A DNA stretch of 64,000 bases from Fidelibacterota bacterium. Its GTDB lineage: Bacteria > Fidelibacterota > UBA2242. A model generated the notes under the pieces. That model was not told the origin of the DNA, did not search any database, and was given only the letters and a program-made list of their open reading frames with translations. Shown one piece after another: positions 8,685 to 15,515 of this stretch (positions within the stretch are counted from its first letter, which is position 1; each line of letters begins with the position of its first letter). The stretch is taken from the NCBI GenBank assembly GCA_049975265.1, contig JBNGDF010000005.1, positions 2,780 through 66,779 of the forward strand, read 5' to 3'. A program made the translations under genes and the position numbers.

Positions 8685-10037
8685 TCAGTGATCGGTTTTG
8701 AAAACAACCGGAATTGAAATATAAACGCCTACCGGTTCACCGTTTTGTTCTGCCGGCTTGAACTTTACCTTTTTTATGGCTTCCATAGCGGCTTTTTCCA
8801 GACCTTTGAAACCGGGGGATATGAGAACCGTTACAGAATCCGATACATCGCCGTTTTTATCCACCAATGTCTGGACAACTACGGTGCCTTCATGTCCTGC
8901 CTCTTTTTCGGCTTGCGGATAGACAACCGCTTTCTGGATAGCCGCAAAACCGCCGATAGGTTCAGGGGGAGAATCGTAGGGAACAAATTTCGGGTCATTC
9001 ACTGCCGCTGTTTTTTCCGATGGATTCACCGGTGTGTTGTTATTTTGATTGTTGCAGGATAGAACAATCAGAATGATGGAAAGAAAAACGAGTGTGATTT
9101 TTTGAAATATTCCTAATTTCATTTGCAGCTCCTTTCCAAAATTGAATAGATATTCAAACCGCCGAATGATGGTTTTTTTTGAGAAAAAGAGACCGTTGGC
9201 GATTAAAGGCAGCCGGTGATGAACCAGGTAACTTTCCAAGTTGTCCATCAATGTTCTGCCGTATTTCGCAGGACTCTCACCCAATAATTGAATGGCAGTC
9301 GCATCACAGATTTTTTCACGTTGAAAGTTGATTTGGTGATTCGCCAGCCAGACCAGGGGATGGAAGAAATAGAGGATGTTTAGTACGTTCTGAACGCTGA
9401 TGGTCAGAATATCCCGGCGTTTGATATGGGCTAATTCGTGACAGAGCACATGGTTCATCTGTTGGGGCTTCCAGCGACTGGCGGATTCCGGCAGGTAAAT
9501 GACCGGCTTGCGGAAACCTTTGGTAAATGGTGCCGGGACGTCTGGGGAGGTGCATAATCGAATCGGTTTTAAGATTCCAATCCGCTGCTTTAATAGATGT
9601 AAATTACTGGATTTAATAAATGTTAAGGATCTACTCAGAGATGTAAAAAAGAGGCGTTCATTACGAATATATAAGAAGAGTAAAATCACAATACCGCATA
9701 GCCAGAGGATGAACAGGATTGACGGAATGGTTAATGAAATCGCCGAACTGGTTTGCGATGCAGCGCCCGCCTGAACCGTATCGAAACGAAAACCGAAGAA
9801 GGGAATGACCGGAATTGCGGAATGCTGCGTGAGAGGAAATTTGATAACCGGCAGAAGGATTGCTTTGAAGATAAACAGAGTCCAGATTGAATATAAAAAG
9901 ACGGGAGACTTTTTTCGGAGCAAGAGATTGAGAGCAAACAGAATCATAAATACAAGTGTCAGTTGCAATGATTGGCGAGCGATGATATTCAGCCAGCTCT
10001 CACCCACCCGGTTGAGTGTTGCGATCAGATCAGCCAT
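8685..10037 (-). CDS. BlaR1/M56 metallopeptidase fused to TonB C-terminal domain
   Basis: TM helices, HELAHIKRRD, FFHPLVW, REKICD; C-terminal YP..EK.AGHEGTVVV...KFKPAEQNGEPV.V.ISIPVVF; ATG 10037 overlaps blaI stop. Confidence 0.9.
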   Translation of the reverse strand: MADLIATLNRVGESWLNIIARQSLQLTLVFMILFALNLLLRKKSPVFLYSIWTLFIFKAILLPVIKFPLTQHSAIPVIPFFGFRFDTVQAGAASQTSSAISLTIPSILFILWLCGIVILLFLYIRNERLFFTSLSRSLTFIKSSNLHLLKQRIGILKPIRLCTSPDVPAPFTKGFRKPVIYLPESASRWKPQQMNHVLCHELAHIKRRDILTISVQNVLNILYFFHPLVWLANHQINFQREKICDATAIQLLGESPAKYGRTLMDNLESYLVHHRLPLIANGLFFSKKTIIRRFEYLFNFGKELQMKLGIFQKITLVFLSIILIVLSCNNQNNNTPVNPSEKTAAVNDPKFVPYDSPPEPIGGFAAIQKAVVYPQAEKEAGHEGTVVVQTLVDKNGDVSDSVTVLISPGFKGLEKAAMEAIKKVKFKPAEQNGEPVGVYISIPVVFKTDH

Positions 10038-10413
10038 TTTCCTGCTCCTTTGTTTCGATGAAATGTTTGATTTTTTCCAGGTCCTTTTCATTGAATTTTT
10101 GCGTATCGAATAAAAAGGCTGCCAGTTTTGAAAATGACCCGTCGAAGGCTCGTTTGACGAAATGGTTGGTCTCCTTCTTGAGAATATCGGTCTCTTTTAC
10201 TGTAGCGGAATAGAAATTGACCAATCCGATCTTTTCTTTGGTCAAATATTTTTTATCCACCAGCCGCTCCATATAGGTCTGAATTGTGGTATAGGCTTTG
10301 GATTGGTGGGCAGACAGGGCTTCATACACATCCCGGACGGTTGCTTTGTCCTTTTTCCAGACCTGCTTCATGATTTCCCATTCGGCGTTTGTCAGTGTTT
10401 CGACTTTTGGCAT
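10030..10413 (-). CDS. blaI: BlaI/MecI/CopY family repressor
   Basis: LTNAEWEIMKQVW, AYTTIQTYMERLVDKKYL, FDGS motifs. Confidence 0.93.
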   Translation of the reverse strand: MPKVETLTNAEWEIMKQVWKKDKATVRDVYEALSAHQSKAYTTIQTYMERLVDKKYLTKEKIGLVNFYSATVKETDILKKETNHFVKRAFDGSFSKLAAFLFDTQKFNEKDLEKIKHFIETKEQENG

Positions 10414-10483: not shown

Positions 10484-10801
10484 GTAAAAATGGGATAAAT
10501 TGCGCCGGACTGAATTGCGCTTCATGGTTGCCAGCTTAAATATGGATGGCAGTGGTAATTTCGATCGCAGGGTCACGGGGAATTTGATCCGCTCTTCAGC
10601 AAAAAACGGGTAAAATTTATCTCCGGTATTCTGTCACCAATCAGTCAACCCGGTAAGAACGGCATAGCAGATAAAGTTTTAAGAATTTGTTTCGGTCTCA
10701 CCCTCTGATTTTTCCGCGAATTGCATGGAAAAAACGATAAAATATTTAATTTACAGTATGAAAACCGCCCGTTATCCGCAAAGAATTCATTCACCGCAGC
10801 T

Positions 10802-12106
10802 ATGATGCGTTCCAATTCAGCGTTTCACATAATGGCAAAACCGGTCGGTCCGCTCTGTAATCTTGCCTGTAAATACTGTTTCTATCTTGAGAAAGACAGA
10901 CTTTTCCCACCTGCTGAGAAATGGATTATGACCCCGGAGATAGTGGAAAAATTTATCCGTGAATATATCGAGTCGCAACCAACGCCGGTGGTCAGCTTTG
11001 CCTGGCAGGGCGGCGAACCGACATTAGCCGGCTTGGATTTTTTCAGGCAGGTTATCCGCCTTCAGAAAAAGTATTCTCATGGAAAAAGGATTGAAAACGC
11101 TTTTCAGACAAATGGGATTTTGCTGGACGACTGCTGGTGCGAATTCTTATCGGAAAATCGTTTTCTGGTGGGACTGTCCATCGACGGTCCCCAGGAAATT
11201 CACGATAAGTATCGCCTTTATAAGAATGGTAAACCGACCTTTGATAAGGTGATGGCTGCCCTGGACTGTTTAAAAAGACACGCTGTCGAATTCAACACCC
11301 TGACCTGTGTCTACAGAGAGAATTCCTACCGACCGCAGGAGATTTATGATTTCCTGAAGTCCATCGGCAGCCGGTTTATGCAGTTTATTCCGATTGTCGC
11401 CAGAAAAGCGCGCGATAACGATGGTACCGGACTGACCCTCGTACCTCCGACGTTTCAGGGAGAAGCGGCTGTAACCGAATGGTCGGTGGAACCTCTGCAG
11501 TATGGAAAATTTATGATGTCTGTTTTTAATAGCTGGGTAAGAAAGGATGTCGGTACATATTTTATCCAGCTGTTCGATGTATGTCTCGGGAGCTGGGTTG
11601 GTCAAAGCGCCGGACTTTGCATATTTGCCGAAACCTGCGGGTGGGCGCTGGCACTGGAGCATAATGGCGATCTGTACTCCTGTGATCACTTTGTCTTTCC
11701 TGAAAACCGGTTAGGTAACATAAGGGAGGAATCCCTCGGGAAGCTTGCAAACTCAGCGAAACAGATTCGATTCGGACGGGACAAAGCAGACACCCTGCCT
11801 CGTGTTTGCCGCCGCTGCGACGTGCGCTTTCTGTGTAATGGCGGTTGCCCCAAAAACAGGTTCGTGAAAACGACAGAGGGAGACCCTGGACTGAATTACT
11901 TATGTGCGGGCTACCAATACTTTTTCCACACAACAGCTCCATATATGCGATATATGGTCAGTGAGCTGAACAACCGGCGCCCGCCCGCCAATGTAATGGA
12001 TTTTGCGAGGCAGAAGGATAAGCATTTCCCCGGAGTCGATCGTAACGATCCCTGTCCTTGCGGCAGCGGCGTCAAGTTTAAAGACTGCTGCGGCAGCGTT
12101 CGTTAG
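10802..12106 (+). CDS. Anaerobic sulfatase maturase (radical SAM/SPASM) with C-terminal SEC-C motif
   Basis: AKPVGPLCNLACKYCFY, WQGGEPTL, YSCDHFV, C..C....CNGGCPK, LNYLCAGY, RNDPCPCGSGVKFKDCC. Confidence 0.93.
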   Translation: MMRSNSAFHIMAKPVGPLCNLACKYCFYLEKDRLFPPAEKWIMTPEIVEKFIREYIESQPTPVVSFAWQGGEPTLAGLDFFRQVIRLQKKYSHGKRIENAFQTNGILLDDCWCEFLSENRFLVGLSIDGPQEIHDKYRLYKNGKPTFDKVMAALDCLKRHAVEFNTLTCVYRENSYRPQEIYDFLKSIGSRFMQFIPIVARKARDNDGTGLTLVPPTFQGEAAVTEWSVEPLQYGKFMMSVFNSWVRKDVGTYFIQLFDVCLGSWVGQSAGLCIFAETCGWALALEHNGDLYSCDHFVFPENRLGNIREESLGKLANSAKQIRFGRDKADTLPRVCRRCDVRFLCNGGCPKNRFVKTTEGDPGLNYLCAGYQYFFHTTAPYMRYMVSELNNRRPPANVMDFARQKDKHFPGVDRNDPCPCGSGVKFKDCCGSVR

Positions 12107-12268: not shown

Positions 12269-13102
12269 ATGATGAAGGAAAAACTAATTTATCGCGGCAA
12301 ATCGAAGGATGTCTTCGAGATAAGTGCAGGATCGCATGCCGGCAAATACCGGATGGTTTTTACGGATAGGGCGACCGGCTATCTGGAAAACGGAAACCCG
12401 GTGTTTGATCCCGGTTACGATACGGTTGTCGGGGAGATTCCCGGCAAAGGAGCAATTGCCTGCCGGTTTGCCACCCATTTCTTCAAACTTCTGAAAGACA
12501 AAGGGATCCCTTCCCATTATATTGATACAGTCGGTGACAACGAAATGATTGTGGAGCCCGCCATTCCGCTGAGTATGCCGGCGGAATCCCCGGAGCTGCC
12601 CGGTTCTGCGCCGCTGCTGAACCTTGAGTTCACCTGGAGAAACAATGCGACCGGCAGTTTCTGGCGCCGGTATCCCTTCGTGAAGCCCGGTAAAAATCTG
12701 CATAAGGTTGTCGAATTATGGACAAAGGGTGATCAGGATATCCTGATTACCATGGAAGCCGTCGAAGCCACCGGAGCCATGACAAGAGCCGAAATCGCAC
12801 AGAGCGTCGGGATTGTACAAAACATCGCCGAGATCGTCTCCCGGGAATTTGCGGTTCACGATCTCCATGTCATCGATGGAAAGTTCGAGCTGGGCAGATT
12901 GAAATACGGTGATGGTGCGATCGTTATCATCGATGAAATATCCCCGGACGTCCTACGGGTCTGCAGAGGCTATGTGCCCGATACGGACGGTAATTGTATG
13001 GTCTTCAAAGAGTGTGCAGTCACCAATTTTGCTGACGACAAACGGACAATCAAGAACCGCAAACAGGTTCCAGCGTCCGATTTTATCAATATATTTCTAT
13101 GA
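12269..13102 (+). CDS. purC: Divergent SAICAR synthetase (PurC)-family ligase
   Basis: GKSKDVFE, FDPG...GKG, RNNATGS, DGKFELG, DEISPD motifs; SD GGGGA before ATG 12269. Confidence 0.75.
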   Translation: MMKEKLIYRGKSKDVFEISAGSHAGKYRMVFTDRATGYLENGNPVFDPGYDTVVGEIPGKGAIACRFATHFFKLLKDKGIPSHYIDTVGDNEMIVEPAIPLSMPAESPELPGSAPLLNLEFTWRNNATGSFWRRYPFVKPGKNLHKVVELWTKGDQDILITMEAVEATGAMTRAEIAQSVGIVQNIAEIVSREFAVHDLHVIDGKFELGRLKYGDGAIVIIDEISPDVLRVCRGYVPDTDGNCMVFKECAVTNFADDKRTIKNRKQVPASDFINIFL

Positions 13103-13170
13103 TCCCAAAAGCGCGGCGATCGGGGCTGATTATTATTGAATTTTTAACCTTCAGGACATAAGGGGATATA

Positions 13171-14364
13171 ATGCAACGCTATGTAGGAACGGTGGCAAGA
13201 GGAATTCGGTTGCCCATCGTGCGTGAAGGGGATGCCATTGCAGAAATAGTTGTTGACAGTGTCATCGCCGCCGCTGAAGCAGAGGGATTCACCATCCGAG
13301 ATCGGGATGTTGTGGGGATTACCGAGTCGGTGGTGGCGCGGGCACAGGGAAACTATGTCACGGTGGCTGCCATTGCGGCGGATTTGAAGATAAAATTCGG
13401 TGGCGACTGCCTGGGTGTTGTCTTTCCCATCCTCAGTCGCAACCGTTATGCCATTCTGCTGAAAGGAATCGCCCGCAGCACCCGGCAGATTGTCCTGCAA
13501 TTCAGCTATCCATCCGACGAGGTCGGTAATCAATTGATCGAGCCGGACAAGGTGGAGGAAGAGGGTGTCAATCCCTGGACAGATCATTTTACGGAAAGCC
13601 AGTTTAAGCGGACTTTCGGCAGTAGTCTGCACCCGTTCACGGGCATAGATTACGTTGCCTACTACCGTTCACTGGTGGAAAGCGAGGGAGCTAAGTGTAC
13701 TATTCTCTTTTCCAATCAGCCGAAAACCATCCTAGACTACGCCAAAAATGTTCTGGCGTGCGACATTCATACCCGGGTACGTACCAAGCGGCAGCTGCTG
13801 GCGGCAGGTGCACAGACGGTCTATAGCCTGGATGAAATTCTGTCCGCTTCCGTGAACGGTAGCGGGTATAATCCGGATTACGGACTGCTGGGCTCAAATA
13901 AAGCCAATGAGGAAACCGTGAAGCTCTTTCCCCGGGACTGCCAGCCGATAGTGGATCGCGTTCAGCAACTTTTCAGGGAAAAAACCGGTAAATCTGTAGA
14001 GGTTCTGATCTACGGCGATGGTGCTTTCAAAGACCCGGTGGGAAAAATCTGGGAGCTGGCAGACCCGGTGGTGTCACCCGCCTATACCGCCGGTTTACGG
14101 GGTACTCCCAATGAGATCAAGCTCAAGTATCTGGCGGACGACCGCTTCGCAGATCTCACCGGACAGGCGCTGAAAGAGGCGATTGTTCAGGAGATTTATG
14201 AGAAAAAAGAGAATCTCGTCGGGGCAATGGAATCCCAGGGGACGACGCCCCGCTGCCTGACCGACCTGATCGGATCGCTCTGCGACCTGATTTCCGGCAG
14301 TGGCGATAAGGGTACGCCGGTGGTGTACATTCAGGGCTATTTCGACAGCTTTGCCACCGGTTGA
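13171..14364 (+). CDS. CofE-like (F420-0:gamma-glutamyl ligase family) protein, function unknown
   Basis: GIRLPIVREGD, DVVGITESVVARAQG, DLIGSLCDLISGSGDKGTPVVYIQG. Confidence 0.82.
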   Translation: MQRYVGTVARGIRLPIVREGDAIAEIVVDSVIAAAEAEGFTIRDRDVVGITESVVARAQGNYVTVAAIAADLKIKFGGDCLGVVFPILSRNRYAILLKGIARSTRQIVLQFSYPSDEVGNQLIEPDKVEEEGVNPWTDHFTESQFKRTFGSSLHPFTGIDYVAYYRSLVESEGAKCTILFSNQPKTILDYAKNVLACDIHTRVRTKRQLLAAGAQTVYSLDEILSASVNGSGYNPDYGLLGSNKANEETVKLFPRDCQPIVDRVQQLFREKTGKSVEVLIYGDGAFKDPVGKIWELADPVVSPAYTAGLRGTPNEIKLKYLADDRFADLTGQALKEAIVQEIYEKKENLVGAMESQGTTPRCLTDLIGSLCDLISGSGDKGTPVVYIQGYFDSFATG

Positions 14365-14408
14365 TACATATTTTAACCAGTAATTTACATTAAAGGGGGA
14401 GCAAGAGC

Positions 14409-15515
14409 ATGAACACGATAGAAAAAGCCCTGATGCACGGATTGTTTGTTCATTTGCATCATAATATCGATAAGGTGATTGATTTCAAAGGGTTTCAGGA
14501 GATCAACCGTCAGGTGGAAAAAATCTGGACGGGAGCCTTACTGGTGGGCCCGGAAGCCAATGACGATGCAGCGGTATTTCAATTTCCCGGAATGGATGGA
14601 TTTGTGGTGGGAAAGATGGAGAGCCACTGCTCGCCTTGTGTACCTCGTCCCTACGACGCAGCCGCTACGGGTGCCGGTGGTGCCATGCGGGATGTGGTGG
14701 CGATGGGCGCCCGCCCAATTTTTTTATTGGATTTCATCGGTACCCGGCCATTGGACCAGGAGGTAATTGTCGGACCCTGTGGATTTAAGGGGCGTTGTAC
14801 CTGCGGCAAATGTAAGGTCATGACCAGTCAGGAGCGGGTGAACATCATGGTCAAAGGTTTGGGGGATATGTGCCGGACGATGGATGTGTTTATTGTCGGC
14901 GGTGGCTTCTCCACCTCCTTTTCGGATATTGTGCCGGCGGTGGTGGTGTCGGTTATCGGCAAACTGGTTACGGAAAAGCCACTCACCAAACCGGCGAAAG
15001 ATGCGGGCGACCAGATCATCATCATCGGTGTAACCGGTAATGATGGAAACGATACCCTCTACCGCGCCGGTCTGGTCGAAGAAATGCGTCCGGCGATCGC
15101 CCTGTTTGATGAAGAAAAAGTGGCAATGGAGGCGGCGTTGGCGGCATTTGCCACCGGTCAGGTCAAAGCCTGTTCCGACCTGGGTGCAGCGGGTATCGGT
15201 GCCGCCATCTGTGAATCCGCCCGGTACGGCAAACGGGGTGCCAGAATCGATTTAACCAAAGTTCCTGTCTCTATTCAGGACATCACTCCTCAGGAAATCC
15301 TGATTTGTGAAACCCAGGCGCGGTATATCGTGCAGGTGGCGCCGGAAGCGGTGGATGAGGTGGTGGCGGCTATTCGTTCCAAAACCGAGCATGTCGCCGT
15401 CATCGGTGAAATTACCACCGCTGATCAGGAGGTTTTCGAGTATAATGGTGAGGTCATTGCCGCGATTCCCAATCAGCCGTCGCAGGCAGAGCTTGAAATA
15501 CTGAAAAGCAGTTAG
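14409..15515 (+). CDS. AIR synthase (PurM/PurL) superfamily protein, half-size, with Cys-rich insert
   Basis: NDDAAV, KMESH, PYDAAATGAGGAMRDVVAMGARPI, DLGAAG, EILICETQARY. Confidence 0.82.
   Translation: MNTIEKALMHGLFVHLHHNIDKVIDFKGFQEINRQVEKIWTGALLVGPEANDDAAVFQFPGMDGFVVGKMESHCSPCVPRPYDAAATGAGGAMRDVVAMGARPIFLLDFIGTRPLDQEVIVGPCGFKGRCTCGKCKVMTSQERVNIMVKGLGDMCRTMDVFIVGGGFSTSFSDIVPAVVVSVIGKLVTEKPLTKPAKDAGDQIIIIGVTGNDGNDTLYRAGLVEEMRPAIALFDEEKVAMEAALAAFATGQVKACSDLGAAGIGAAICESARYGKRGARIDLTKVPVSIQDITPQEILICETQARYIVQVAPEAVDEVVAAIRSKTEHVAVIGEITTADQEVFEYNGEVIAAIPNQPSQAELEILKSS

Follow-up and report, generated by a model that had tools for sequence, protein, structure and literature searches.

A three-gene operon in a Fidelibacterota genome encodes candidate ammonia-dependent enzymes of purine synthesis

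A 64,000-nucleotide stretch of the genome of a Fidelibacterota bacterium (assembly GCA_049975265.1, contig JBNGDF010000005.1, positions 2,780 to 66,779; here called the window) contains an operon of three genes that encode a PurC-like protein, a CofE-like protein, and a protein half the size of PurL (half-PurL). We consider it rather likely that the operon bundles enzymes that use ammonia to bypass steps of de novo purine synthesis and is not a secondary-metabolite cluster. In the textbook pathway, aspartate and PurB are each needed twice, and the formation of formylglycinamidine ribonucleotide (FGAM) depends on glutamine. In the proposed route, half-PurL would convert formylglycinamide ribonucleotide (FGAR) to FGAM without PurQ or PurS, the PurC-like protein would need neither aspartate nor PurB to turn carboxyaminoimidazole ribonucleotide (CAIR) into aminoimidazole carboxamide ribonucleotide (AICAR) in a single step, and a route from inosine monophosphate (IMP) to adenosine monophosphate (AMP) without PurA or PurB would be provided by the CofE-fold protein. 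All three would share one chemistry, in which a nucleoside triphosphate phosphorylates an oxygen of a carboxylate or an amide and the phosphate is displaced by NH3. Enzymes that normally stand alone would here be gathered in one operon, and on the best reading half-PurL and the PurC-like protein act at the same pathway steps as their namesakes.

If this is true, anaerobes have a purine route that runs in parallel on ammonia and in which old folds catalyze new reactions. Two enzyme reactions (CAIR to AICAR and IMP to AMP) would be new, the long CofE-like family would have a function, the gaps at purC, purB, and purQ that metabolic reconstructions show would be explained, and two widespread labels would need correction, "F420-0 ligase" in 62 and "SAICAR synthetase" in 50 of 201 sampled Bacillota genomes. 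The literature that we searched, with most subscription journals outside our reach, contained no description of the functions of the three subfamilies or of an ammonia-dependent AICAR or AMP synthetase.

The operon and the canonical pathway in the same genome

The three genes are intact open reading frames (ORFs) on the same strand, with intergenic gaps of 68 nucleotides and then 44 nucleotides, as follows (positions in the window; aa, amino acids).

12269..13102, + strand, PurC-like gene (PurC*, below called the 277-aa form), 277 aa, a branch of the wider PurC2 subfamily; Pfam SAICAR_synt, E value of 5e-30
13171..14364, + strand, long CofE-fold gene (CofE-like), 397 aa; Pfam F420_ligase, E value of 7e-55
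14409..15515, + strand, half-PurL gene, 368 aa; Pfam AIRS and AIRS_C

The start of the PurC-like gene was set at 12269 rather than at the ORF-caller start of 12254; nearly all of its 120 homologues measure 277 aa. The initial annotation of the window had described three closely spaced, co-oriented genes with PurC-like, CofE-like, and half-size PurL-like folds, and both the arrangement and, by Pfam and structure matches, the folds were confirmed. All three proteins missed the corresponding NCBIfam equivalog cutoffs by far: the PurC-like protein scored 97.6 bits against 189.9 for purC (TIGR00081), the CofE-like protein 42 bits against 180.65 for cofE (TIGR01916), and half-PurL 170.6 bits against 525.75 for purL (TIGR01736). 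None of them is therefore filed as PurC, PurL, or CofE, each failing a defining test. The nearest locus, in Candidatus Neomarinimicrobiota, encodes proteins with 88 to 93% identity.

The genome (2.86 Mb, 95% complete) was searched outside the window, as the initial annotation had proposed, for canonical purC, purL, purQ, and purS and for cofC and cofD. The four pur genes were found, which makes the operon genes paralogues and not the sole purC and purL; neither CofC nor CofD was detected, at a genome completeness of 95%. Canonical purC, purB, purS, and purQ lie on contig C7, purL and purF on C9, purM on C3, purD on C24, purE on C14, purN and purH on C6, purA on C1, and guaA on C34, and none of these was found on the contig of the window (C5). 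Of these calls, purC, purL, and purM scored over the cutoff (canonical PurC at 260.6 bits against 189.9), purB, purF, purD, purE, purN, purH, purS, and guaA were made by tblastn, and purA, like pyrG, was made by motif. The trio in this genome is an addition to a complete canonical pathway, a redundant one that probably pays off under high ammonium with limiting glutamine or ATP (adenosine triphosphate).

Half-PurL and the PurC-like protein

PurL is reported to have arisen by duplication, with the active site in one half (PMC13013826, PMC5919458). Half-PurL is a single PurM-type unit (one AIRS plus AIRS_C pair), occurs as complete ORFs of similar size across its family, and aligns best to the catalytic N-terminal half of small PurL. 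Its predicted structure (predicted local distance difference test score, pLDDT, of 87.7) matched Thermotoga maritima PurL best in Foldseek, with a template modeling score of 0.73 to 0.75. Small PurL (FGAM synthetase II; T. maritima PDB 2HS0/2HS3; TIGR01736) and half-PurL share the PurM-superfamily fold and the catalytic-half motifs: half-PurL keeps K69/E71/S72/H73 (K-x-E-S-H), D257 (DLG), E301-x-Q303 (E-x-Q), and DX4GAXP, a motif named for PurL (PMC13013826). In contrast to small PurL, which works with PurQ and PurS, half-PurL has a single unit, 368 aa in length, rather than a pair, a substrate loop changed from SHNH to SHCS (Cys74 in 79/79 sequences), a shortened C-loop that has lost its Gln, and a four-Cys insertion, C-x5-C-x-C-x2-C (C124/C130/C132/C135), that is invariant in 79/79 and may bind a metal. 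The C-loop Gln of PurL is described as contacting formylglycinamide (PMC13013826) and is tied to gating of the ammonia channel (PMC13013826, PMC5919458). Half-PurL is likely a homodimer, which would rebuild the two-unit site.

Models of PurM, HypE, SelD, and ThiL gave half-PurL 45 bits or less, none over its cutoff, and purM, hypE-like, and selD-like genes exist separately in this genome. Region C19:16968-19211 of this genome encodes a 747-aa protein that begins like a cysteine desulfurase and matches AIRS_C, apparently a NifS-SelD fusion.

In 7 of 50 carrier genomes (G011, G020, G022, G036, G041, G047, and G050) and in a further 4 of 76 (G280, G285, G374, and G386), no PurL-like match other than half-PurL was found; G011, G285, and G374 are each represented by one chromosome-size contig. 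When half-PurL-only genomes were tested, the PurQ family (GATase_5) was missing in 5/5, PurD was present in 5/5, and PurM scored over the cutoff in 4/5; G011 has a 390-aa gene that is presumably PurM-like. Together, these results make half-PurL quite probably an FGAM synthetase that is free of glutaminase and dependent on ammonia. At one locus (L022:7430-10974), half-PurL adjoins canonical purQ and a long purL, and at another (L031:11549) it lies ∼2.4 kb from purE.

The PurC-like protein belongs to the same family as PurC/SAICAR synthetase (TIGR00081; PDB 2YZL, 3U54, and 4FE2; human PAICS; SAICAR is the succinocarboxamide counterpart of AICAR). Aligned with four canonical PurC sequences, it keeps GKxK, E-x3-RN, GS, K-x-E, and DE-x2-PD-x2-R, all invariant in 120 homologues, and we take these motifs to bind ATP, Mg, and CAIR, roles partly backed by the study of PAICS. 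Both the 277-aa form and the shorter Bacillota form (PurC2) carry a loop insertion of the FDPG type and stop before the C-terminal helix with the DKDxFR tail, which was found in 7/7 canonical PurC sequences, 0/120 of the 277-aa form, and 0/40 PurC2. By our own alignment, we equate this tail with Lys228 and Arg232 of PAICS. In PAICS, these two residues are reported to bind the aspartate carboxylates (PMC9376930). Judged from the alignments, the PurC-like protein has lost, rather than changed, its amino-acid-binding tail. The 277-aa form also has four invariant Cys residues, again a possible metal site, and in a tree of 37 sequences rooted at the midpoint, it and the shorter Bacillota form were separated from canonical PurC with a branch support of 100/100.

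Carriers of PurC2 lack other genes of the pathway. PurC2 was found in 50 of the 201 sampled Bacillota, all 50 of which have canonical PurM, and in 33 of the 50 it occupies the pathway slot of canonical purC, no second, canonical PurC being found. An intact purC was missing from the pur operons in 30/30 cases (29 of the 33 PurC2-only genomes plus G047). PurB scored over the cutoff in 0/5 PurC2-only, CofE-like-positive genomes, while controls were detected in 14/14; the weak matches to the purB model were ArgH and aspartase, in 2/5, and the other 3/5 had no lyase-family match at an E value of 1e-5. In G220, a stretch interrupted by stops (L369:14461-15170) runs from the 5' part of purB directly into the 3' part of purC. 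This deletion remnant sits in an otherwise intact pur operon, and PurC2 and the CofE-like gene are ∼15 kb apart in that genome. With no aspartate site in PurC and no SAICAR lyase in the cell, the simplest reading is direct synthesis of AICAR with ammonia. The PurC-like protein is thus a likely, if slightly less secure than half-PurL, PurB-independent AICAR synthetase that would convert CAIR to AICAR with ammonia. Purine proteins named PurC1 and PurC2 are listed for Clostridium difficile (PMC6198727), where the name PurC2 need not denote the subfamily described here.

The CofE-like protein and AMP formation

The CofE-like protein is predicted (pLDDT of 89.5) to adopt the CofE fold, into which an alpha/beta domain is inserted at approximately residues 75 to 245. 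Compared with Archaeoglobus fulgidus CofE (PDB 2PHN; TIGR01916), the fold is common (Foldseek E value of 1e-6; VIA Z of 15.7, root mean square deviation of 4.5 over 188 residues), and the CofE-like protein has ∼150 extra residues, which form this domain. The best match of the inserted domain was like universal stress protein (USP-like; Z of 7.5), a value within background. In sequence, the N- and C-terminal segments align with CofE only in short, nonsignificant pieces. Residues T51, E52, D283, D372, and D379 are invariant in the CofE-like family (the numbering of the GTP [guanosine triphosphate] and metal ligands of A. fulgidus CofE is assumed). CofE itself is reported to use GTP to phosphorylate a carboxylate, which is then attacked by an amine (PMC8498797). 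A role of the CofE-like protein in F420 synthesis in this genome was rejected, as the pathway partners of CofE, CofC and CofD, were not found in the 95% complete assembly. A longer form of ∼520 aa with a further insertion (L163:5934-7484; L289 to L293) was the best match in 8 of 62 Bacillota carriers.

CofE-like genes were found in 62 of the 201 Bacillota, about three in ten, and their presence followed that of PurC2: 27/33 PurC2-only genomes, 8/17 with PurC2 plus canonical PurC, and 27/151 PurC2-negative genomes. The two genes occurred together in 35 of the 201 genomes, compared to ∼15 expected. Thirty pur operons were fetched, and after 5 in which purE was out of view were dropped, 25 PurC2-only operons were scored for purB. 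Intact purB was missing from 20/22 CofE-like-positive operons, in contrast to 0/3 CofE-like-negative operons. PurB is needed for AMP as well as for AICAR, and PurA itself uses GTP. A cell without PurB therefore needs another route from IMP, and a GTP-using amination enzyme fits this need. The CofE-like protein is a candidate AMP synthetase that would convert IMP to AMP with GTP and ammonia; we place this at nearly an even chance, and it is the least certain of the three assignments. The CofE-like protein as a replacement for PurF was rejected, PurF-family genes being present in 5/5 genomes tested, 3 of them over the cutoff.

Genes for other probable glutamine-independent aminations lie near the families described here in some loci. 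PyrJ of Streptococcus pneumoniae is reported to make CTP (cytidine triphosphate) from ammonia only, not from glutamine (bioRxiv 10.1101/2024.09.24.614635). The trio is proposed to act alike, in that PyrJ and the trio lack a glutaminase domain or partner and replace or double a canonical step; PyrJ differs in fold and pathway (pyrimidine) and was shown by assay, whereas the trio is predicted from sequence. PyrJ-like genes (DUF1846; PRK13663 over the cutoff) adjoin PurC2 in 4/40 loci and CofE-like genes in 1/85, and this genome has one (C7:56153-57673), beside canonical pyrG, whose product is 55% identical to the protein at locus L302. GuaA lacking its glutaminase half is encoded at the head of the pur operon in G308 and G262 and, in G011, close to purD; ORFs of such GMP (guanosine monophosphate) synthases, of 320 to 332 aa, are at L356:2504-3502, L359:4891-5874, and L436:10561-11523. 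In G386, the only PurF-family match lacks the N-terminal Cys, and an ammonia-dependent PurF' has been proposed for archaea (PMC3261824). Many anaerobes may have a shortened purine pathway without aspartate, PurA, PurB, or PurQ that uses the three ammonia enzymes together with PyrJ and glutaminase-less GuaA, a generalization that we hold tentatively, at somewhat below even odds. Full-length PurL without an adjoining purS or purQ match was seen in the operons of loci L352, L356, L357, L363, L365, L366, and L368, which may also mean ammonia use.

Distribution, alternative explanations, and genomic setting

The half-PurL family is tight, with 67 to 93% identity across Bacteroidota, Planctomycetota, Acidobacteriota, Aminicenantes, Elusimicrobia, Bacillota, and others, and clustering at 50% left few half-PurL representatives separate from full-length PurL. 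The initial annotation had raised conservation of the trio across genomes. Co-occurrence stood, as all three genes were found in the same 4 of 41 relatives and none in the other 37, but conservation as a three-gene operon was rejected: the trio was adjacent in 1 of the best 80 of 89 half-PurL loci (70 of the 80 had enough upstream sequence) and in 0/85 CofE-like loci. Two of the four trio genomes have the operon, and in the two others, which belong to another genus, each gene is on a contig of its own. Elsewhere, the PurC-like gene in its 277-aa form and the CofE-like gene mostly stand alone. Half-PurL was found in 14/50 PurC2-positive genomes versus 0/27 with the CofE-like gene only. The only recurrent neighbor of half-PurL was a 376-aa PurM-like gene, in 26/80 loci (27 counting a remnant), and one locus is ordered half-PurL, PurM-like, PurC-like (277-aa form). 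This PurM-like family (e.g., L049:9106-10236), which follows half-PurL, shows ∼80% identity across phyla, scores below the purM cutoff, has GGTGGG in place of HITGGG, and is rarer where PurC2 is present (4/18 versus 21/32).

Several observations weigh against an ammonia-fed purine route. Every canonical gene is also present in this genome, and 31 of the 50 half-PurL carriers have canonical PurL over the cutoff beside it, so half-PurL is usually a second enzyme; the copy in G280 is frameshifted. The SHNH-to-SHCS change and the lost C-loop Gln could mean another substrate. PurB is often encoded outside the operon (2/10 canonical operons lacked purB), so that only the five genome-wide tests show its absence. 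The AMP step was assigned from purB loss alone, with purA sought only in this genome; adenine salvage could also supply AMP, and at locus L199, purA lies beside a LysR gene and the CofE-like gene. The CofE-like gene occurs without PurC2 in 27/62 genomes and PurC2 without the CofE-like gene in 15/50. Finally, kin among the sampled genomes are not independent, so Fisher P values overstate the significance, the absences come from a filtered search of genomes that are for the most part drafts, and the five genomes of each small test were hand-picked, not random.

Some of these points fit a reading in which half-PurL and the PurC-like protein are the ammonia-route enzymes and the CofE-like protein acts otherwise, e.g., in folate (poly)glutamylation or another nucleotide step, with AMP coming from salvage or an unrecognized enzyme. 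The COG1478/CofE family includes chlamydial FolC2 (CT611), described as an alternative folylglutamate synthase (PMC4161248), and so the fold can glutamylate folate; MetF-like genes adjoin the CofE-like gene in 2/20 Bacillota loci, a LysR gene is present in 40/85 CofE-like loci, and the 27 genomes without PurC2 just mentioned also fit. FolC2, however, stands in for a missing folC, whereas FolC scores over the cutoff in this genome, which led us to reject FolC replacement here, and the presence of the CofE-like gene follows that of PurC2 and the loss of purB. A folate role leaves the difference in operon purB loss between CofE-like-positive and -negative genomes unexplained, and we regard this reading as unlikely. 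Less probable still, with a small chance, is that the PurC-like protein remains a normal SAICAR synthetase whose aspartate site has been remodeled, or accepts a different amino acid, that an unrecognized lyase (possibly the CofE-like protein or ArgH) serves for PurB, and that half-PurL receives ammonia from another glutaminase. The retained ATP, Mg, and CAIR motifs, the position of the FDPG insertion near the Asp-binding Thr, and the ArgH or aspartase matches in two of the five purB-negative genomes are consistent with it. In 160/160 PurC-like and PurC2 sequences, nonetheless, the C-terminal helix is missing entirely, as are the two basic residues that bind Asp, a GTP-binding ligase fold is unlikely to act as a beta-eliminating lyase, and three of those five genomes had no lyase-family match.

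Perfect co-occurrence in the four relatives, the invariant Cys motifs of half-PurL and the 277-aa form, and altered active-site loops would also suit a trio acting in sequence on an amino-acid-decorated nucleotide or cofactor, with the conserved cysteines perhaps handling sulfur or a metal. The initial annotation had offered assembly of such a product as one option, and the results speak against it: adjacency is confined to 1/80 and 0/85 loci, each gene is often found without the others, the PurC-like tail is lost, no tailoring, transport, or regulatory neighbors are common to the three, and two of the three genes fill holes in primary purine synthesis. We consider it very improbable. An arrangement present only here and in the nearest relative, with the genes in variable slots elsewhere, might even reflect a chance cluster of unrelated paralogues acquired horizontally from a habitat gene pool, with no joint function, but the matched purC, purB, and purSQL losses in carriers are not expected from habitat alone, and this explanation has the slightest chance of all. 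A noncanonical purine bypass, the other option of the initial annotation, gains support from these same holes, that is, the purC, purB, and purQ losses in carriers.

A search in the class of G023 returned 0/121 and was uninformative, and a protein atlas search returned nothing beyond the query's own family. No regulatory RNA was found at the gathering threshold in 40 loci (0 hits), and none was credible within the window; a promoter scan gave only consensus matches, and by eye a ribosome-binding site was the only element common to half-PurL flanks. Phage origin was rejected, with 0 half-PurL, 0 PurC-like (277-aa form), and 0 PurM-like loci from viral contigs; 5 CofE-like loci came from viral contigs, and plasmid records gave 1 CofE-like and 0 PurC2. 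Two features lie upstream of the operon in the window.

8685-10413, BlaI-like repressor and BlaR/M56-like membrane protein with a TonB-like C terminus, presumed identities
10721-12106, anaerobic sulfatase maturase (radical SAM/SPASM, SEC-C tail), over the cutoff, outside the module

The second was considered as a fourth operon member and rejected, given its score as a maturase and the presence of a different gene at that position in the nearest relative.

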